This document shows, in pieces, positions 1 through 5,550 of a stretch of 5,550 bases of DNA (its first letter is position 1; every line of letters begins with the position of its first letter). The position numbers and the translations under genes were made by a program. The notes below the pieces were generated by a model that did not search any database, was not told the origin of the DNA, and saw only the letters and a list, made by a program, of their open reading frames with translations. Source of the DNA: a virus; IMG/VR virus record IMGVR_UViG_3300011982_000239, positions 1-5,550 of that record. One strand, 5' to 3'.

Positions 1-81
1 GATTATGAACTTTCTGCAGAAAAGTTAAATTTATTGTATTGTGCGATTATTGATTTTACTGAATCAATAAAAATCGCATAA
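1..81 (+). CDS. 3' fragment (26 codons plus TAA) of the small HTH protein gene that begins at 5422, if the molecule is circular
   Basis: Frame 1 is open from base 1 to TAA at 79-81 (DYELSAEKLNLLYCAIIDFTESIKIA). It is in phase with the ORF running off the 3' end, whose 129 nt are exactly 43 codons. Confidence 0.55.
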   Translation, partial: DYELSAEKLNLLYCAIIDFTESIKIA

Positions 82-105
82 CATACATTATTTACATAAA
101 TATAT

Positions 106-114
106 TGGTACTAT
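106..114 (+). promoter_or_regulatory. Candidate extended -10 promoter element (TGgTACTAT) upstream of the 59-aa gene
   Basis: TG-n-TACTAT lies about 22 nt upstream of ATG 136. It is part of a roughly 17-nt motif (TATTGGTACTATTTTAT) repeated at 5382-5399. No good -35 hexamer sits at proper spacing. Confidence 0.3.
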
Positions 115-135
115 TTTATTAGAAAGGTGGTTTTT

Positions 136-315
136 ATGTCTAACACTTGTACACTAAAAGTGGAGCGTGAGATTGTTGAAAAGAATGGTAAAACTTATAA
201 GAATTTATTTCTCATCGTTCCTAAGTTCAATGGAGAAGTTAAAAAGATTTCTCTATATGATCTTAATGGCTATGCTCGTGAGTTTATTAATGATTATTTA
301 GATTCTGTTAAGTAG
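136..315 (+). CDS. 59-aa small soluble Lys/Glu-rich protein; candidate ssDNA-binding (gene V-like) protein by size and position only
   Basis: ATG 136 is preceded by AAAGGTGG (123-130). The track start at 127 is a GTG inside that RBS. The gene lies between the replication module and the structural genes. No recognisable motif. Confidence 0.6.
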   Translation: MSNTCTLKVEREIVEKNGKTYKNLFLIVPKFNGEVKKISLYDLNGYAREFINDYLDSVK

Positions 316-335
316 TTTTAGAAGGGTAGAGATCT

Positions 336-1427
336 ATGAAAAAGGTATTTATGTTTATTTTGACATTTCTAATATCTTTACAGGTAGTTTCTCTACCCGT
401 TTTTGCTTCTGGTACTGTTACTGCTATTCCATACGATAGTATGGATGCTTATGCTTATTTCTCTTCTAAAGGTTTAATTAATTTTTCTTCTTCTGGTGTT
501 CCGTCAAATATAGTACATACTGTTCCTGATAAAGAGTCCACTATTAATTGTTATGGTTCTCGTCAGTCGGAAAAATATTCTGCTGAAGAAAAGAAAAATT
601 ATAATTTTTATTGTAAAGCGTATGATGGCTATTCTGGTTATTATACTGAAAATAATTTTCTTTCTATGTCTTATCCTACTGTTTCTGGTAGATGGCGTTA
701 TACAGGTACGTATGATCCTAGTTCTTTTGTTTCTTTTGGTGGTTATCAGGGTTATATTTATCTTGAATTTCTTTCTACTGTACAAGTTTATGGTGATATT
801 TATATAGCTGGTGAGCATACACCCGTTCATTCTCATGTTGAGAATTTATTAATTCAATATGTAGCTAACTTTAGGGGTGTATCTTATTTTCATTACGTTT
901 TTAGATTTAAGTCTACTGATCCTTATTTCTCTATAGACTTTTCTCGCTTTGTTGATAAAGATGTGACTGTTGTTCCTATTCTTTTAAAACCTGAATCTTT
1001 TTTAACTGATATTGAGCGTGCGCGTTTCGGTCTTCCTACTTCTACTCAACAAGCTATATATGATTTGAAAGCTATTACTGTTCAGAAATTTGATGAATTA
1101 ATTTCTAATTTAGGTGGTGTTCCTAGTAGTGATCCTGATTTAAATCAGCTTCTTTCTACTATATCTGTTAATAATAAGAATTATGATTCTACTAATAAGA
1201 ATTTTAATGATTTAGAAAATTCTTTTTCTAATGACATGAATAATAGTTTAACTTCTATTGATTCTAATCCTAAATTAATTACTAATTCTAAGTTTATTAA
1301 TTCAATGAAGTTTGTTTCTGATTTATACACTAAATTGGTTATTGATACTCCTTTTGAACAGATTTTAATGTTTACTGCTACTTTAGGTATTGCTTTAGTT
1401 TTAATTGGAAAGTTGAGAAATAGGTGA
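336..1427 (+). CDS. pIII-like minor coat / adsorption protein (secreted, C-terminal membrane anchor)
   Basis: RBS GAAGGG is at 321-326. The N-terminal signal peptide MKKVFMFILTFLISLQVVSLPVFA/SG has a VFA cleavage-type site. The N-terminal region is Tyr/Gly-rich, followed by an Asn/Ser-rich low-complexity linker. The terminal TM helix plus basic tail is ILMFTATLGIALVLIGKLRNR. It is the largest ORF and is followed by a pVI-like gene, as in Ff phages. Confidence 0.7.
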   Translation: MKKVFMFILTFLISLQVVSLPVFASGTVTAIPYDSMDAYAYFSSKGLINFSSSGVPSNIVHTVPDKESTINCYGSRQSEKYSAEEKKNYNFYCKAYDGYSGYYTENNFLSMSYPTVSGRWRYTGTYDPSSFVSFGGYQGYIYLEFLSTVQVYGDIYIAGEHTPVHSHVENLLIQYVANFRGVSYFHYVFRFKSTDPYFSIDFSRFVDKDVTVVPILLKPESFLTDIERARFGLPTSTQQAIYDLKAITVQKFDELISNLGGVPSSDPDLNQLLSTISVNNKNYDSTNKNFNDLENSFSNDMNNSLTSIDSNPKLITNSKFINSMKFVSDLYTKLVIDTPFEQILMFTATLGIALVLIGKLRNR

Positions 1428-1642
1428 TGTTAGAATTTATTAAAACTCTTTTAGGTACTTTTGGTTCTTTGTTTACTTTTTTTTGGAATTTTATTTCTTC
1501 TTTATTTAATCTTTTTTCTAAATTACCTTCTTTTATTCTTTTTCTTACTAATAGTATTGCTTTACTTCCTATGATTCTGATTCCTTTTATTACTGCTGCT
1601 ATTAGTATTTACGTTGTTTTGTTTATTGTTGGGAGAAATTAA
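1427..1642 (+). CDS. 71-aa polytopic hydrophobic protein, pVI-like minor virion/membrane protein by position
   Basis: ATG 1427 shares its A with the upstream TGA stop (1425-1427), suggesting translational coupling. The track start at 1424 is a GTG. There are two to three hydrophobic segments, and the protein ends in ...IVGRN. Confidence 0.6.
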   Translation: MLEFIKTLLGTFGSLFTFFWNFISSLFNLFSKLPSFILFLTNSIALLPMILIPFITAAISIYVVLFIVGRN

Positions 1643-1870
1643 ATGGGTGAAGCTCTTACTTTGTTGTTTCAAATTTATTCTAAATTCATTGAATTTATTT
1701 TTGATAAAGCTGAAATTTTGAATGGTGTTACTTTAGGTTGGATTGCTTTAAGCGTTCTTATCTTTAGTGTTTTGATTAAGTCTCTTATGGCTGTTCCTTC
1801 TCGGGCCCAAGGTCATTCTTTTGGTGATAGTCCGACTGTTAAGTATTTAAAAAAGAAAAATGGTGATTGA
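1643..1870 (+). CDS. 75-aa single-pass membrane protein, function unknown
   Basis: GGGAG (1631-1635) lies 7 nt upstream of ATG 1643, which directly abuts the preceding TAA. One central TM segment (VTLGWIALSVLIFSVLIKSLMAV) and a basic C-terminus. Confidence 0.6.
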   Translation: MGEALTLLFQIYSKFIEFIFDKAEILNGVTLGWIALSVLIFSVLIKSLMAVPSRAQGHSFGDSPTVKYLKKKNGD

Positions 1871-2222
1871 TATGGATAATGGTTGCACTGTTTCTTTCGA
1901 TGGTGATCAGGGTGGTACTTATTTTGTTCCTTGTAATGTTGTTAAATTTTTAAGTGATAAAGATTTATCTTCTTCATGTTCTGAAACTATTTATTTATTT
2001 CGTGATTTATCTTTAGAACATTTTAAGATTTCTTGTTCTTCTTATTCTTTACCTTCGTATGTAGATTCTAATCATACTGTTCATTCTATTTCTAATGTGT
2101 CTAATATTCGTTTTAATGCTATGTCTAATGTTTATCGTAATTTAGATTATGTTTACTTATTTGTAGCTTTTATCGTCTCTGTATATTGTCTTTTTAAAAT
2201 GTTAAGGGGGTTTGTAAGATGA
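1860..2222 (+). CDS. About 116-120-aa protein with a C-terminal TM anchor, function unknown (possible minor virion protein)
   Basis: The ORF is open 1860-2222. An alternative and perhaps better start is ATG 1872, with GGTGA 6 nt upstream and just after the upstream TGA. The C-terminal hydrophobic anchor is YVYLFVAFIVSVYCLFKMLRGFVR. No signal peptide. Confidence 0.55.
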   Translation: MVIDMDNGCTVSFDGDQGGTYFVPCNVVKFLSDKDLSSSCSETIYLFRDLSLEHFKISCSSYSLPSYVDSNHTVHSISNVSNIRFNAMSNVYRNLDYVYLFVAFIVSVYCLFKMLRGFVR

Positions 2223-2365
2223 TAGATCAGATCATGGTTTTTCTTGGTAAGAATGATTATCCATTTTTGAGTCAGTTTCTTAGTGTTGTTGTTCTTACTG
2301 TAATTGTTTTAGTAGCTCTTAATATTCTTCAGTCTACTCTTTTTTGGGTAGGTGGTAAGAGATGA
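2219..2365 (+). CDS. 48-aa small hydrophobic protein (not in the ORF track); pVII/pIX-like virion cap protein candidate by position
   Basis: ATG 2219 overlaps the upstream TGA (ATGA) and GGGGG (2206-2210) lies 8 nt upstream. Translation is MIDQIMVFLGKNDYPFLSQFLSVVVLTVIVLVALNILQSTLFWVGGKR, with one TM segment. The stop TGA at 2363-2365 overlaps the next ATG. Confidence 0.5.
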   Translation: MIDQIMVFLGKNDYPFLSQFLSVVVLTVIVLVALNILQSTLFWVGGKR

Positions 2366-2514
2366 TGATACAGGTTGTTACTTTCGTTTTTAAGCTTATG
2401 ACTGATTGGGTTAATTTAGTTTCTTCGTCTTGGTTGTTAAGTATATTTGTGTTGTTCAGTATTATTGCACTTGTTGTAAATTTAGTTGTTAATAGTACTG
2501 CAAATAAACAGTAG
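2362..2514 (+). CDS. 50-aa small hydrophobic protein (not in the ORF track); pVII/pIX-like candidate by position
   Basis: ATG 2362 overlaps the upstream stop (ATGA) and AGGTGG (2350-2355) lies 6 nt upstream. Translation is MMIQVVTFVFKLMTDWVNLVSSSWLLSIFVLFSIIALVVNLVVNSTANKQ. It ends at TAG 2512-2514, immediately before the coat-gene RBS. Confidence 0.5.
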   Translation: MMIQVVTFVFKLMTDWVNLVSSSWLLSIFVLFSIIALVVNLVVNSTANKQ

Positions 2515-2527
2515 AAAGGGGGAAATC

Positions 2528-2695
2528 ATGGAAGCTTTATTAGCTAGTATTGCACTTGTAGCTGCTGAGATTTTTAAGTATGTTGGTACAATTGCTACTA
2601 CAATTACTTCTACACCATTATTACTACTTACAGTTGGTTTCTTGGTTGTTGGTGGTGCTGTTGGTATTTTTGGTCGTTTATTATCTAGAAATTAG
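2528..2695 (+). CDS. Major coat protein paralog 1 (pVIII-like, 55 aa)
   Basis: The strong RBS AAAGGGGGA is followed by ATG 2528. The track extension to 2486 lacks an RBS and overlaps the previous small ORF. The protein is small, with a hydrophobic/amphipathic N-terminal segment, a TSTP hinge, a Gly-rich TM helix LLLLTVGFLVVGGAVGIFG and a basic tail RLLSRN. Confidence 0.75.
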   Translation: MEALLASIALVAAEIFKYVGTIATTITSTPLLLLTVGFLVVGGAVGIFGRLLSRN

Positions 2696-2711
2696 TTAGG
2701 AGGTTGTTTTT

Positions 2712-2903
2712 ATGGAAGGTGGTGTAGTTAATCCTATGGTTGAACTTCTTAAATCTATTGGTTATGTAGCTACTGCAATTTTTACTTATGTTGGTACTAT
2801 TGCTAGTACTATTACAAGTACTCCGTTATTGTTACTTACCGTAGGTTTCTTAGTTGTTGGTGGTGCTATCGGTATTTTTGGTCGTTTGCTCTCAAGAAAC
2901 TAA
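2712..2903 (+). CDS. Major coat protein paralog 2 (pVIII-like, 63 aa)
   Basis: RBS AGGAGG lies about 8 nt upstream of ATG 2712. The protein is a full-length homolog of the preceding ORF. The C-terminal 38 residues differ at only 2 positions, and there is an 8-aa longer N-terminus. A strong terminator follows. Confidence 0.75.
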   Translation: MEGGVVNPMVELLKSIGYVATAIFTYVGTIASTITSTPLLLLTVGFLVVGGAIGIFGRLLSRN

Positions 2904-2913
2904 GTAGAAAGGT

Positions 2914-2944
2914 GGGAGCTTATAATATAAGCTCCCTTTGTTTA
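2914..2944 (+). terminator. Rho-independent terminator after the coat genes
   Basis: A perfect palindrome GGGAGCTTATAATATAAGCTCCC (2914-2936) gives a stem of about 9 bp (2914-2922 / 2928-2936). It is followed by TTTGTTTA. The placement after the major coat gene mirrors the Ff gene VIII terminator. Confidence 0.8.
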
Positions 2945-3078
2945 TGGATGTTAGTTTAATTATTAATTTTGTTATTAACGCAATTAAGATGATTTATACA
3001 TCTAATTTTGTTTTAATTTTTTTCGGTTTTGTTCTTGTTGATTGTTTGTTTTCTTTTTTTACTAGAAGGTTAATGTGA
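2944..3078 (+). CDS. Possible 44-aa hydrophobic peptide (not in the ORF track)
   Basis: Translation from ATG 2944 to TGA 3076-3078 is MDVSLIINFVINAIKMIYTSNFVLIFFGFVLVDCLFSFFTRRLM. The stop overlaps ATG 3078 of the ATPase gene (TGATG). There is no Shine-Dalgarno, and T-rich DNA yields hydrophobic peptides in any frame, so support is weak. Confidence 0.3.
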   Translation: MDVSLIINFVINAIKMIYTSNFVLIFFGFVLVDCLFSFFTRRLM

Positions 3079-3866
3079 TGTTTAAATTTATTCTTATTTT
3101 GTTTTTATTCATGTTTTTGTTTTTAAAACTTACTAATAAGTATGTTAATCCTTATAAGCTTATTATGATTTTTGGTAAAAAGGGTAGTGGTAAAACCACT
3201 ACTTTAACAAAGATAGCATTAAAAGAATTAAAAAGAAAGCATAAAGTTTATTCGACTGTTGAAATTCCTAGCACTTATCTTTTCAATACTGATGATATTG
3301 GATCTTTGACTTTTGAACCTGGTTCTACTGTTTTAATTGATGAAGTTGGTATGATTTGGGACAATCGCGATTTTAAAAATTTTAAGCCACAAGTTAGAGA
3401 TTTTTTTAAATATCAGAGACAATATAAGCTTAAAATCTATTTGTTTAGTCAGACTTTTGACATTGATTTGAAGCTTAGAAACTTAACTGATGAGATGTAT
3501 TTACTTTCTAATTGTTTTCGTGTTTTTTCTGTAGCTCGTCGTATTTCTAAGAAGATAACTATTAAAGAATGTGCTGATGGTACTAGTACTCTTTCCGATA
3601 CTTATGAATTTTATCCTTTATTGTTTGGTGGTTTAAAGTTTACTTTTATTCCTCGGTATACGTCTTTCTATAAATCTTATGATCCTAAGAAATTAGCTTA
3701 TATTAATGGTACTTATTTGGAATTAAATGATGTTCAGAAACGTTATTTAAGTAGTCGTAAATGGTTTTTTGATAAATTTAAAATCGGTTTTATTAAGTTT
3801 ATTGATTTTCTTAAGTCTGCAGTGCGCCCACGCAGTCGCACTGCAACGAAAAAAGTAGAAGGGTAG
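3078..3866 (+). CDS. Zot/pI-like P-loop NTPase, filamentous-phage assembly (morphogenesis) ATPase with an N-terminal TM anchor
   Basis: GAAGG (3065-3069) lies 8 nt upstream of ATG 3078; the track start at 3075 is a GTG. The N-terminal hydrophobic helix is FKFILILFLFMFLFLKL. Walker A GKKGSGKT is at nt 3174-3197 and Walker B VLIDE at nt 3330-3344. Size and position fit an inovirus pI. Confidence 0.75.
   Translation: MFKFILILFLFMFLFLKLTNKYVNPYKLIMIFGKKGSGKTTTLTKIALKELKRKHKVYSTVEIPSTYLFNTDDIGSLTFEPGSTVLIDEVGMIWDNRDFKNFKPQVRDFFKYQRQYKLKIYLFSQTFDIDLKLRNLTDEMYLLSNCFRVFSVARRISKKITIKECADGTSTLSDTYEFYPLLFGGLKFTFIPRYTSFYKSYDPKKLAYINGTYLELNDVQKRYLSSRKWFFDKFKIGFIKFIDFLKSAVRPRSRTATKKVEG
3818..3845. repeat. 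GC-rich inverted repeat (9-bp stem, 10-nt loop) inside the 3' end of the ATPase gene
   Basis: TGCAGTGCG (3818-3826) pairs with CGCACTGCA (3837-3845) around the loop CCCACGCAGT. It is a conspicuous GC island in AT-rich sequence. Confidence 0.7.
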
Positions 3867-3873
3867 TATTATT

Positions 3874-4023
3874 ATGTTTTTATTAAAATCGTTCTTAAAG
3901 CTTTTGTATTTGCCTTCTAAAGTTATTTATCATTTGATGATGATTGTTTTGATTCCTTTTCCAAAGTTTAGAAAAATTTTTAGTATGTGTTTTTATGTTT
4001 ATCGTAGGTGGTTATATTTATGA
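3874..4023 (+). CDS. Possible 49-aa basic hydrophobic peptide (not in the ORF track)
   Basis: ATG 3874 has GAAGGG about 10 nt upstream. Translation is MFLLKSFLKLLYLPSKVIYHLMMIVLIPFPKFRKIFSMCFYVYRRWLYL. The stop TGA at 4021-4023 overlaps ATG 4020 of the next gene (ATGA). The T-rich composition caveat applies. Confidence 0.4.
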   Translation: MFLLKSFLKLLYLPSKVIYHLMMIVLIPFPKFRKIFSMCFYVYRRWLYL

Positions 4024-4358
4024 AATTTAAAACATGTGGTTATTTAGATAAGTTTGATACTGTTGGTGGTCTTATTAAGTATTTGAAACGTAATCATTTA
4101 TTAGAAGATTCTATTGTTTATGTGATTGGTTTTGATGAAGAACGTTTGTATTCTATGTTTGATTATGATGATTTAAAGTTTTTATTATCTAGTTTCGGTA
4201 ATAGTTCTTATTATAATTGTGATCATTGTTGTGTTTCTTCTGATGTTGGTTACACAGTTGATTTTTACCAGATAATGTTAACTGATTCTTTACCTAAAGT
4301 TGGTGATTTATTTTTACAAGCTTATCCACATAAGTATGAAAATACAGATAAAAAATAG
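4020..4358 (+). CDS. 112-aa acidic soluble protein of unknown function, with a CDHCC cysteine cluster
   Basis: AGGTGG (4005-4010) lies 9 nt upstream of ATG 4020; the track start at 4008 is a GTG inside the RBS. There is no TM segment and no motif I recognise. Confidence 0.65.
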   Translation: MKFKTCGYLDKFDTVGGLIKYLKRNHLLEDSIVYVIGFDEERLYSMFDYDDLKFLLSSFGNSSYYNCDHCCVSSDVGYTVDFYQIMLTDSLPKVGDLFLQAYPHKYENTDKK

Positions 4359-4403
4359 TTATAATTTCGAAAAAAATTATAACGTTAGCTCTGCTAATTT
4401 TTT
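4358..4403 (+). terminator. AT-rich hairpin plus mini-hairpin and T-run; possible terminator and/or ssDNA structural element (packaging signal or minus-strand origin)
   Basis: GTTATAATTT (4358-4367) pairs with AAATTATAAC (4374-4383) around a 6-nt loop. Next, TTAGC (4385-4389) pairs with GCTAA (4393-4397) and is followed by TTTTTT (4398-4403). The element starts at the stop codon of the 112-aa gene. Confidence 0.4.
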
Positions 4404-4455
4404 ATATGTATTTGGCAAGCGTAAGCGCGCAAGTGTCGATTATTTTTGTAGCAAA

Positions 4456-4495
4456 AATAGTGAGGCTTCTATTACTTGATATAAGCCTCACTATT
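4456..4495 (+). other. Putative plus-strand replication origin: 13-bp stem hairpin with a candidate Rep nick site in the loop
   Basis: AATAGTGAGGCTT (4456-4468) pairs perfectly with AAGCCTCACTATT (4483-4495). The 14-nt loop is CTATTACTTGATAT. The loop 9-mer ACTTGATAT (4474-4482) equals the nick region of the phiX174 origin as I recall it. The hairpin lies about 40 nt upstream of rep. Confidence 0.55.
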
Positions 4496-4536
4496 CAAAG
4501 TAATGATTTTATCAAAGATAATTTTTAGGGGGGTCT

Positions 4537-5376
4537 ATGTTATGTGAAAGACAAGATGTCGTACGTTATTATGATTCTCGTTTAACGTTGTTTTCTGACG
4601 GAAAATTGGTCATCCGTGATTATGATTCTGCTATACAGAAGATACCTAATGGTTTTGAAGAATTACCAGGAGAATTACCAGGAGAATTAGTTACTCATTC
4701 ATCAAAAAAAGAACGTGATAAGTTTGGATCATGTCGCTTTGATAATTTGTTTAGAAGTAGAAAATTAGTTATTGATTTAGCATACGAAAATAAGGATATC
4801 TGGAAATCGTTTTTAACTCTTACATTTGCTGAAAATGTAAAGGATATTGATTTTGCGAATAAGTGTTTTAATTCTTGGTTAACTTCGGTTAGACAGTCAT
4901 TTTTTGATTTTGCATATTTATGCGTTCCTGAATTTCAGAAGAGGGGAGCTGTTCACTATCATTTATTATCTAATTTAGAGGTAGGAGGGGAGTTACTTCC
5001 AATCCAAAACGAAAAAAAGCATATGTATGATGTTAAGTATTGGAAATATGGTTTTACTTCTGCTTTTGATTTACGCTTAGCTGATGATAAATTTAATGTT
5101 TCTCTTTATGTTTGTAAGTACTTGTACAAGGATATTGATAATCGGCTTTTTGGTCGTAAGAAGATAATGCATAGTCGCAATTTGAATTTACCTAAAGTTT
5201 CTACGATTTTACAAAATAATTCTTATGTTCAATCTATTTTAGCGCATATTATTGATGATAAAGAAATTATAGAGTTTAAATTTGATTCAAAGAAAAAATT
5301 TCAAGTTGGTTTTAAGGAGCAAACAGTTTTTCTCTCTAATGATGAAATGAAGAAAATTGATTTCTTATTTACTTAA
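4537..5376 (+). CDS. rep: Rolling-circle replication initiator (HUH endonuclease superfamily Rep)
   Basis: RBS AGGGGGG is at 4527-4533. Motif I FLTLTF is at nt 4810-4827. Motif II (HUH) VHYHLL has HYH at nt 4954-4962. Motif III YVCKYLYK, with two tyrosines spaced YxxxY, is at nt 5107-5130. Confidence 0.85.
   Translation: MLCERQDVVRYYDSRLTLFSDGKLVIRDYDSAIQKIPNGFEELPGELPGELVTHSSKKERDKFGSCRFDNLFRSRKLVIDLAYENKDIWKSFLTLTFAENVKDIDFANKCFNSWLTSVRQSFFDFAYLCVPEFQKRGAVHYHLLSNLEVGGELLPIQNEKKHMYDVKYWKYGFTSAFDLRLADDKFNVSLYVCKYLYKDIDNRLFGRKKIMHSRNLNLPKVSTILQNNSYVQSILAHIIDDKEIIEFKFDSKKKFQVGFKEQTVFLSNDEMKKIDFLFT
4660..4689 (+). repeat. Perfect 12-nt tandem repeat, 2.5 copies, inside rep (encodes ELPGELPGEL)
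   Basis: GAATTACCAGGA occurs at 4660-4671 and 4672-4683, followed by GAATTA at 4684-4689. Confidence 0.9.
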
Positions 5377-5384
5377 TTTTTTAT

Positions 5385-5393
5385 TGGTAGTAT
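5385..5393 (+). promoter_or_regulatory. Candidate extended -10 promoter element (TGgTAGTAT) upstream of the HTH gene
   Basis: TG-n-TAGTAT lies about 29 nt upstream of ATG 5422. It is embedded in TATTGGTAGTATATTTAT, a near copy of the motif at 103-119. Confidence 0.3.
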
Positions 5394-5421
5394 ATTTATG
5401 GTGTAAGGAGGTATCAATTTT

Positions 5422-5550
5422 ATGTTAACGAAGTCGGACTATCGTTCGTACTTCGCTAAGTGTAAGAAATACATTAAGTTTAATTCTTTTCTTAAAGATT
5501 TAGGTATTAATCAGTCTGCATTTTCTAAGTTTATGAAAGATGATTTATTT
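5422..5550 (+). CDS. 5' part (43 codons) of a small helix-turn-helix (Xre/Cro-like) regulator; runs off the window end
   Basis: AAGGAGG (5405-5411) lies 10 nt upstream of ATG 5422. Translation is MLTKSDYRSYFAKCKKYIKFNSFLKDLGINQSAFSKFMKDDLF. The segment FLKDLGINQSAFSKFMK has the helix-turn-helix pattern typical of small phage repressors. There is no stop before base 5550. Confidence 0.6.
   Translation, partial: MLTKSDYRSYFAKCKKYIKFNSFLKDLGINQSAFSKFMKDDLF

Follow-up and report, generated by a model that had tools for sequence, protein, structure and literature searches.

Closest described systems

Hardly any work exists on filamentous phages that infect Gram-positive bacteria: two have been cultured, compared with thousands predicted from metagenomes. 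Roux et al. 2019 catalogued thousands of inovirus genomes, among which four of six candidate families infect monoderm or wall-less hosts; the main text of that catalogue does not contain 'Xer', and none of its matches to the word 'dif' means the dif site (PMC6813254). Here we describe a 5,550-nt stretch of viral DNA, analysed whole and called the window, whose numbering is used for all positions and whose coding strand is called +. We read it, with a probability of about 85%, as a complete circular genome, that of a filamentous phage (inovirus-type, Tubulavirales) not yet in culture, with oral Solobacterium as host and an Xer-based integration mechanism. It adds a new member to a lineage that has been catalogued but still awaits characterisation. 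In a literature search of incomplete coverage, and thus as weak evidence, we found no report of Solobacterium inoviruses or of Xer-exploiting phages of Gram-positive bacteria.

The nearest phages in GenBank are uncultured gut inoviruses, which account for all 72 records matching the Zot-family assembly ATPase of the window (from rodent, lemur, pig and human faeces; at most 56% amino acid identity). The replication initiator (Rep) is 27-35% identical to those of the same phages; its core also resembles, at about 30%, that of Spiroplasma phage SVGII3 and of two Microviridae. Like the window, the gut inoviruses (bajarodino and Dulem viruses and porcine 'Inovirus sp.'; PQ0061xx, PP511xxx, MT1352xx) are circular, typically of 5-8 kb, and carry their genes on one strand, with a Zot protein of 34-56% amino acid identity and a Rep of the PF23343 type 27-35% identical to that of the window. 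In Dulem virus 69, for example, Zot is 49% identical, two adjacent coat paralogues 49% each, Rep 27%, and an open reading frame (ORF) resembling pVI 32%. Nucleotide similarity is confined to the Zot/coat region. The gut inoviruses derive from animal guts and their records name no host, whereas the window derives from the human mouth; a Solobacterium-type dif-like site is absent from the two gut inoviruses examined and from 40 distant IMG/VR relatives.

In its attachment site (attP), the window resembles TLC-phi and the GGI, and more loosely VGJ-phi and CTX-phi of Vibrio, all of them integrative mobile elements exploiting Xer (IMEX; for definitions see PMC5357621, PMC6744903 and PMC12715192). 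The attP of TLC-phi and the GGI has one good arm, a dif-identical centre and a divergent second arm (PMC5357621). Common to these elements and the window are the lack of an own recombinase, a single double-stranded dif-like attP, integration at chromosomal dif that restores a complete dif, arrays or tandem copies, and a small regulator gene abutting attP. Unlike TLC-phi and the GGI, the window belongs with a Gram-positive Erysipelotrichaceae host rather than a proteobacterium, dif lies 43 bp from xer, the recombinase beside dif is not assignable to XerC or XerD, and a DUF3653/XafT-like protein was undetected among the proteins scanned. Unlike CTX-phi, it has no folded single-stranded DNA (ssDNA) attP made of two inverted dif-like sites. 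The linkage of recombinase gene and site is known from XerS/difSL (PMC1914069, PMC5357621). The 43-bp linkage seen here, which is kept in several Erysipelotrichaceae genera, is like that of the single-recombinase modules XerS/difSL and XerH/difH, but difSL is 31 bp long, in contrast to the classical 11+6+11 dif found here, and the protein falls far below the XerS model.

Two other phage families were compared. The cultured Propionibacterium phage B5 (Paulinoviridae) likewise has a 5.8-kb genome with one coding strand and without a secretin, and a Gram-positive host. The comparison with B5, proposed in an earlier note on the window made from its sequence alone, yielded a trace of similarity in the ATPase (20% over 145 aa, E = 0.009, four-genome search); the other proteins were unmatched. 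Phage B5 and its host are both of high G+C. Within the Plectroviridae, the Rep of SVGII3 has the PF23343 core in common with the window (30% over 108 aa), whereas MV-L1 gave no protein match at E<1, and the window differs in using TGA as a stop codon, encoding a Zot-family ATPase and having a walled host. The Mollicutes are wall-less relatives of the Erysipelotrichia. Judged by what defines the Plectroviridae (a Mollicute host and the gene content of MV-L1/SpV1), the window, with its Solobacterium-type flanks in relatives and no MV-L1 match, lies outside that family.

A closed unit of 5,550 nt

The earlier note had proposed that the window is a complete circular genome cut inside a gene, and public assemblies bear this out. 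From ATG 5422 a frame stays free of stops to 5550 (43 codons), and from base 1 onward frame 1 is open for 26 codons to TAA 79-81; joined, 5422-5550 and 1-81 encode a single 69-aa protein. With the stop frequency of 0.076 per codon given by base composition (about one per 13 codons), 69 open codons have a probability of about 0.004. As an independent test of circularity, we looked up the exact Rep protein in public assemblies; it occurs on seven contigs, which come from at least three projects on human oral metagenomes. Four are full length and 100% identical to the window: L003 and L004 (5,677 nt each, MEGAHIT k127), L005 (5,580 nt, Logan) and L006 (5,568 nt). Their exact terminal repeats of 127, 127, 30 and 18 nt leave a unit of exactly 5,550 nt, and their start points in the window (5419, 3301, 2014 and 1172, respectively) are circularly permuted. 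The 5550-to-1 junction is uninterrupted in six contigs, on five of which gene callers predict the 69-aa gene intact.

With four identical, permuted and terminally redundant assemblies, the window is therefore a closed unit of 5,550 nt: a circle, or the unit of a tandem array, represented once and opened within the 69-aa gene. Chromosomal sequence attached at both window ends, the arrangement that would have contradicted the proposal, was not seen: none of the seven exact-genotype contigs has host flanks or exceeds 10 kb, and the junction is present. The size falls in the range of Tubulavirales or inoviruses sensu lato (about 4.5-12 kb). Exact 52-mers and 54-mers of the window gave no match in IMG/VR, where the closest entries are relatives of 76-84% nucleotide identity.

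The circle could also be an assembly product of tandem integrated copies, in which case the window would be the repeat unit of a chromosomal array and not a free genome. Tandem arrays and circles leave an identical k-mer overlap signature, and tandem prophage dimers with an internal attP do occur among the relatives (see below). Nonetheless, four assemblies from different samples and assemblers cross attP without host branching, from unrelated start positions, and the exact-genotype contigs are all of 10 kb or less and lack host flanks, one partial contig having 363x coverage according to its name. We regard an array as unlikely, and even an array would cast no doubt on the 5,550-nt unit and the joined gene.

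A dif-like attP and integrated relatives

A search with the Zot protein recovered 1,808 homologues. The contigs of two close homologues (94% and 97% identical) are 66-139 kb long and contain a prophage that matches the window at 81-84% identity across almost its full length. Such prophages, on contigs of 66-173 kb, are located between xer and hup: on one side lies the gene for a 306-aa Xer-family tyrosine recombinase, itself preceded by xseA-xseB-ispA-dxs-recN-dinB, and on the other hup-nrnA-ackA-ylxM-ftsY-smc. The junctions in L010, L014 and L045 place both ends of the prophage between the 69-aa gene and a 59-aa gene.

It is here that the window contains a dif-like attP (71-98), composed of the arm AAATCGCATAA (71-81), the centre CATACA (82-87) and the degenerate arm TTATTTACATA (88-98). 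Twenty-one contiguous bases of the 28 (71-91) are identical to the host dif and the last seven differ; the TAA of the 69-aa gene forms the end of the conserved arm. None of 200 shuffles of the window matched dif with five or fewer mismatches, and no second dif-like site was found in the window within seven mismatches. In the integrated relatives, attL (...TTTATTTAAATCGCATAACATACATTAT followed by ATTCAATATTGG...) joins the host arm to the degenerate phage arm, and attR (...AAAAGTCGCATAACATACATTAT followed by GCGAAGTTACTTAT...) is a regenerated complete dif. Across relatives, the conserved arm and the central region are fixed, with the other arm free to vary.

The empty site predicted from these junctions, AAATCGCATAA-CATACA-TTATGCGAAGT, has the 11+6+11 layout with inverted arms TCGCATAA/TTATGCGA. 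In sequence it resembles the dif of E. coli, which is GGTGCGCATAA-TGTATA-TTATGTTAAAT. The predicted site is present verbatim in six Solobacterium reference genomes, metagenome-assembled ones that include JABZMB01, CALHUY01 and CAUVCV01, 43 bp past the xer stop codon, and near-identical sites stand beside xer in other Erysipelotrichaceae. At the site the GC skew changes from +0.13 to -0.14 in five genomes, and genes converge on it in one empty-site genome and in the prophage-bearing contigs. Because it is empty in six genomes, lies 43 bp after an Xer-family gene and coincides with the change of sign in GC skew, we take this site to be the chromosomal dif; palindromic arms and the position of the skew switch are published dif criteria (PMC3025954). 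The dif lies no more than about 100 bp downstream of an Xer-family gene in L018-L023 (about 10918-10990) and in L024, L025, L027 and L033, and the linked xer-dif module of Solobacterium and other Erysipelotrichaceae is reminiscent of XerS/difSL.

A dif-like attP in the window and relatives integrated at dif make it most likely that the phage is an integrative element and exploits Xer through an attP of the TLC/GGI style. As ssDNA, region 55-130 is no more stably folded than shuffled sequence (z = +1.3); for this reason, and because the site is single, the attP is not of the folded CTX type. By its sequence the attP would work like the TLC/GGI type, yet the phage falls outside the XafT-bearing group: a DUF3653/XafT-like protein had no match at E<=1 among the ten proteins scanned, which include the 69-aa protein and leave out the five smallest ORFs. 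The earlier note had listed the lack of an integrase, and we too find no recombinase domain; this does not make the phage purely episomal, given the dif-like attP and the relatives integrated at dif.

Several points weigh against the reading of the window as the genome of a filamentous, Xer-exploiting Solobacterium phage. The recombinase next to dif scores below the cut-offs of both the XerC and XerD models, which are tied, and reaches 114 bits with the XerS model against a cut-off of 267. Dependence on Xer is deduced from site identity and from the absent phage recombinase. The terms 'filamentous' and 'ssDNA' come from gene content, and the T-rich coding strand, one-signed skews and covarying intergenic hairpins are only indirect signs of packaged ssDNA. 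No family match backs the coat, pIII-like and pVI-like assignments, and the origin assignments come from comparative analysis. In addition, the exact genotype has been seen only as circles, with integration shown in relatives and for a shared module, and a related prophage was found beside xer in none of 27 reference Erysipelotrichaceae/Bacilli loci, in a search whose positive control worked. The last two points would equally fit a purely episomal phage with chronic infection only, for which the 21-nt dif match is a relic or a functionless coincidence. We consider this distinctly unlikely, however, as chance is excluded by the shuffles, the arm and centre are perfectly conserved while the other arm varies freely, and the same module is integrated in L045, 98.9% identical over window 1-91. 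Dif-type attP sites were found in none of the more distant relatives (L001, L002 and 40 IMG/VR loci of 28-54% G+C), so that the finding applies to the Solobacterium group.

The host of the integrated relatives

The recombinase flanking the prophages is 92-99% identical to those of six Solobacterium genomes and 58-70% identical to those of most other Erysipelotrichaceae loci recovered. The host of the close relatives is thus Solobacterium, a Gram-positive anaerobe of the mouth. Its family, the Erysipelotrichaceae, consists of walled relatives of the Mollicutes. All exact copies of the window are of oral origin, which fits such a host. Bulleidia, a close relative of Solobacterium, has been described as a Gram-positive member of the Bacillota (PMC12786226). 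A monoderm low-G+C host, neither a proteobacterium nor Spiroplasma, had been predicted from the sequence, and the 81-84% identical prophages in Solobacterium contigs directly support that prediction, with which the absence of TGA as a sense codon also agrees.

For the exact genotype the host assignment is indirect, and the window has 29% G+C compared with 35% in the Solobacterium flanks, as might suit another low-G+C oral host such as a diderm (Fusobacterium or Leptotrichia) or a Mollicute. The integrated prophages are likewise of 29% G+C within flanks of 35%, however, and attP equals the Solobacterium dif over 21 nt; the 81-84% identical relatives and the shared Rep/HTH/attP module (HTH, helix-turn-helix) are in Solobacterium-type contigs. 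Code-4 Mollicutes are excluded because TGA is never a sense codon. Another host is very improbable in our judgement.

A second inovirus and a mosaic prophage at dif

The dif site is shared by more than one phage lineage. In L010 (12661-16927) and L011, the regenerated dif has taken up a second inovirus, which lies head-to-head with the first. Its Rep is of the Rep_OBD type, and it has an ATPase of its own (P-loop, 247 aa), a 372-aa pIII-like protein and a coat-like protein (65 aa); its 67-aa HTH homologue (48% identical) adjoins the opposite dif arm, and its distal arm is degenerate (AAATTTAAGAA). L045 contains, at 5480-10270, a mosaic prophage integrated at the same dif: its structural module is that of the second inovirus (80-85% nucleotide identity), and its intergenic/Rep/HTH/attP module is of the window type (81% identity overall). 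Across L010, L011 and L045 the HTH-attP unit thus acts like a lysogeny module that can be exchanged, and to judge by sequence the replication-lysogeny and structural modules have evidently been swapped among lineages that share the dif site. The unit recalls the rstR/xafT-attP modules of Vibrio phages (PMC12715192).

L046 and L016 (the latter along its whole length, as is the former) are tandem prophage dimers with the order attL, phage, internal attP, phage and attR, the last being a complete dif. Apart from these, L015 (7961-11616) and L011 (6830-11536) have tandem partial duplications within the prophage, of 1,833 and 2,362 bp and 100% and 99.9% identity. In each, one breakpoint lies within rep, about 80-125 nt from its start (window 4615 and 4661), next to a 41-nt direct repeat (4538-4578/4589-4629). 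These duplications could reflect aberrant rolling-circle termination or could be assembly artefacts.

Proposed life cycle and significance

In the cycle we propose, the T-rich plus strand would be converted after entry into a double-stranded replicative form, and Rep would nick the conserved loop of a stem-loop at 4456-4495 and drive rolling-circle replication. The Zot ATPase, anchored by its N-terminus, may then thread progeny strands through the membrane, where two coat proteins would cover them; a secretin would be unnecessary because the host has no outer membrane. For lysogeny, the host Xer-family recombinase, encoded 43 bp from dif, would recombine the double-stranded attP with dif, as in TLC-phi and GGI-type elements. 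The 69-aa helical protein, whose stop codon lies in attP, may be the lysogeny regulator or possibly a cofactor of Xer.

Taken jointly, the data allow a broader and tentative reading, to which we give slightly less than even odds: this genome and its relatives would be the first recognised Gram-positive filamentous phages that lysogenise via the dimer-resolution machinery of the host. They would do so at a linked xer-dif module with possibly one recombinase, with at least three mosaic inovirus lineages competing for the site, and with an attP that keeps one dif arm or the other, each abutted by an HTH gene of about 68 aa, which could encode a new, non-DUF3653 Xer cofactor or regulator.

Xer exploitation has so far been worked out in proteobacteria only, and the present example adds a Firmicutes case with an xer-linked dif and without a XafT homologue. 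It supplies a concrete host, a complete genome, mapped attP, attB, attL and attR, and candidate origins. A 28-bp substrate together with one or two purified proteins makes it possible to test how Xer is activated without FtsK and whether one recombinase suffices. Standard tools overlook such prophages, for which the dif-arm signature offers a means of detection and delimitation. Solobacterium is an anaerobe associated with halitosis and periodontitis, and the phage is a possible display or delivery chassis for oral Gram-positive anaerobes.

Coding layout and genetic code

The + strand is composed of 43% T, 28% A, 17% G and 11% C (G+C 29%). All 15 ORFs lie on this one strand, of which they cover 93.5%, and GC skew and AT skew each keep a single sign around the whole genome, as expected of a strand-asymmetric replicon. 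Strong Shine-Dalgarno sites precede nearly all genes. TGA is the stop codon of six ORFs, mainly in ATGA/GTGA overlaps. As a trinucleotide TGA occurs 139 times on the strand but in frame in none of the 1,721 codons, and Trp is encoded by TGG in all 12 cases; on these grounds the genome uses the standard bacterial code (code 11). Genetic codes 4 and 25 were rejected, as in-frame TGA is absent and read-through would gain merely 0-17 codons. In all these respects (a co-directional, T-rich coding strand, TGA as the stop at coupled junctions and strong Shine-Dalgarno sites) the layout is as the earlier note had described it.

The ORFs scanned against Pfam, PHROGs and NCBIfam contain no secretin, recombinase or transposase domain, in keeping with the lack of secretin and integrase claimed at the outset, and no mobilisation or partition genes are present in the window. 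Scans of the window for tRNAs and Rfam families were empty. A sigma-70 promoter scan returned sites no more numerous than in shuffles, and we accordingly claim no promoter.

Rep and the assembly ATPase

The two enzymes named in the earlier note, Rep and a pI/Zot ATPase, are both supported by profile matches. Rep (4537-5376, +) is a 279-aa HUH rolling-circle replication initiator (PF23343, 2.4e-15; phrog_3419, 4.6e-22) with the motifs FLTLTF (4810-4827), HYHLL (4954-4968) and YVCKYLYK (5107-5130). Its ratio of nonsynonymous to synonymous substitution rates (dN/dS, obtained here as for all genes by comparison with two diverged relatives) is 0.15. In its poorly conserved N-terminal part, a short tandem repeat, GGAGAATTACCA, occurs in frame at least twice (ELPGELPGEL; 4666-4692).

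The Zot/pI-family morphogenesis ATPase (3075-3866, +; 262-263 aa) is identified by PF05707, by PHROG matches and by GenBank relatives labelled Zot; gene callers start it at the ATG one codon downstream of 3075. It scores 21.9 bits with PF05707 (cut-off 20.3), 3.9e-27 with phrog_25712 and 4.8e-6 with the Zot-like phrog_197, and PF05707 matches all 32 of its aligned homologues (best 2.5e-8). A Walker A motif, GKKGSGKT, lies at 3174-3197 and a Walker B motif, VLIDEVG, at 3330-3350. Against PDB sequences, the Zot profile found the Neisseria Zot 2r2a at E = 0.11 and otherwise generic P-loops. Classical pI/Zot proteins have the reverse topology, with a C-terminal transmembrane helix, whereas the sole membrane helix predicted here is N-terminal (residues 1-23; 3075-3143), with none past the ATPase domain. 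This N-terminal hydrophobic stretch is kept across the 32-sequence alignment, and the dN/dS of the gene is 0.10. Near the 3' end of this AT-rich gene there is a G+C-rich hairpin (3818-3847) with a 9-bp stem, GCAGTGCG.../...CGCACTGC (z = -3.4).

Candidate membrane and structural proteins

Besides the ATPase, ten further ORFs have predicted membrane helices, and nearly all small ORFs are under purifying selection (dN/dS 0.05-0.3). The labels given to them in the earlier note (pIII-like, pVI-like and coat) agree with architecture, position and selection pattern, and find no counterpart among known families.

The candidate for a pIII-like adsorption protein (336-1427, +; 363 aa) has an N-terminal signal-like helix and a C-terminal membrane anchor (transmembrane segments 1-31 and 339-361). 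It had no match in Pfam, PHROG or NCBIfam; the 372-aa protein encoded by the second Solobacterium inovirus is 29-30% identical to it. The gene evolves fast (dN/dS 0.71-0.75), and its N-terminal part is unalignable at the nucleotide level. It is followed by genes for a 71-aa membrane protein that is pVI-like by position (1427-1642, +; transmembrane segment 33-71; dN/dS 0.27-0.30) and 32% identical to the Dulem virus 69 ORF, a 75-aa protein with a single predicted transmembrane helix (1643-1870, +; dN/dS 0.15-0.18), and a 120-aa protein with a C-terminal transmembrane helix (1860-2222, +). The last of these is also fast-evolving (dN/dS 0.43-0.96), so that the pIII-like and 120-aa genes would behave as those of host-contact proteins do. 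Two single-helix membrane proteins, of 48 aa (2219-2365, +; 98% of amino acids conserved; dN/dS 0.08-0.12) and 50 aa (2362-2514, +; dN/dS 0.06-0.08), are candidates for minor virion proteins.

Candidates for the major coat protein are a 55-aa protein, A (2528-2695, +; dN/dS 0.05-0.06), and its tandem paralogue B of 63 aa (2712-2903, +; 46 of 55 amino acids identical; dN/dS 0.07). Both have a hydrophobic core, predicted as a helix in A, and a basic C-terminus, with the strongest Shine-Dalgarno sites and a terminator downstream. Neither matches a coat family in Pfam or PHROG, and each is 49% identical to one of the two adjacent Dulem virus 69 paralogues. The conservation of two coat paralogues suggests a virion of two major coat proteins, unusual for inoviruses. 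The intrinsic terminator behind them, which the earlier note had included in the gene set, lies at 2914-2936 (+; 10-bp stem, loop of 3, tail TTTGTTT; -9.7 kcal/mol, z = -5.2). The next gene, translationally coupled to that of the ATPase, encodes a 46-aa hydrophobic protein (2938-3078, +; 91-93% of amino acids conserved; dN/dS 0.11-0.15).

The small ORFs, pIII-like protein, coat paralogues and terminator are thus in the order typical of inoviruses. That the window is instead a small rolling-circle plasmid or non-viral integrative element with a chance P-loop ATPase, as the structural proteins without a curated family match and a Zot score barely above the Pfam threshold for this sequence might suggest, is hardly credible beside the Zot match in 32 of 32 homologues, ten small transmembrane proteins in that order, relatives deposited as complete circular inovirus genomes and the absence of mobilisation or partition genes.

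Intergenic region and candidate origins

The 178-nt intergenic region ahead of rep is strongly structured as ssDNA (z = -6.0). Stem-loop A (4358-4383, +), with a 10-bp stem and the loop TCGAAA, is nested in a longer hairpin (4340-4413). All ten of its pairs are kept, seven with compensatory double changes, in six distinct sequences that include the phage with an unrelated Rep. A near-invariant G+C-rich block, GCAAGCGTAAGCGCGCAAG (4415-4433, +), is apparent in the alignment and is likewise common to the Rep_OBD phage. Because they are common to a phage with an unrelated Rep, stem-loop A and the block should have a Rep-independent function, and we infer that the two (4358-4433) form a minus-strand origin or a packaging signal.

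Stem-loop B (4456-4495, +) has 17-nt arms and, at 4472-4481, the conserved loop TTACTTGATA (-12.7 kcal/mol, z = -6.9 for the stem-loop). It is present in all phages with this type of Rep, and in the Rep_OBD phage a G6/C6 hairpin is found instead. From this distribution we infer that stem-loop B is a candidate Rep-specific plus-strand origin.

Other small proteins

The 69-aa protein encoded across the ends of the window (5' part of 43 codons, 5422-5550, +; 3' part of 26 codons plus TAA, 1-81, +, with the stop codon within the attP arm) is a putative XRE-like HTH protein with eight homologues only and a dN/dS of 0.12 in comparison with L014. Its AF2 model has four helices (pLDDT 71), and its best Foldseek matches are HTH domains (MuB N-terminal domain, TM-score 0.66-0.70; HipB; an XRE regulator; P22 c2), all at E>1; against Pfam, it matched DUF7726 alone (E = 0.022). 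The HTH assignment, made previously from the sequence, is therefore plausible but unproven: it agrees with the four-helix model and the head of the Foldseek list, and every match has E>1.

The 59-aa cytoplasmic protein (136-315, +; 62 aa from GTG 127) is encoded by the first gene after attL in the prophages (dN/dS 0.28 and 0). It had been labelled a small putative single-stranded DNA-binding protein, a label that came from position only and that we do not retain. A phmmer search of 1.84 billion representatives found only its own cluster. Compared by Foldseek with PDB and BFVD, its predicted fold (pLDDT 78; two long beta strands, one short strand and one helix, in effect a beta-hairpin plus helix) had no match with E below 0.1 and none to gVp or an OB-fold. 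A likeness by eye to the 48-aa protein of the second phage received no support from BLASTP.

Finally, a 112-aa acidic cytoplasmic protein (4020-4358, +) had no family match in Pfam, PHROG or NCBIfam. It contains the Cys cluster NCDHCC and, with 96% of its amino acids conserved and a dN/dS of 0.08-0.09, is encoded by one of the most conserved genes of the phage.

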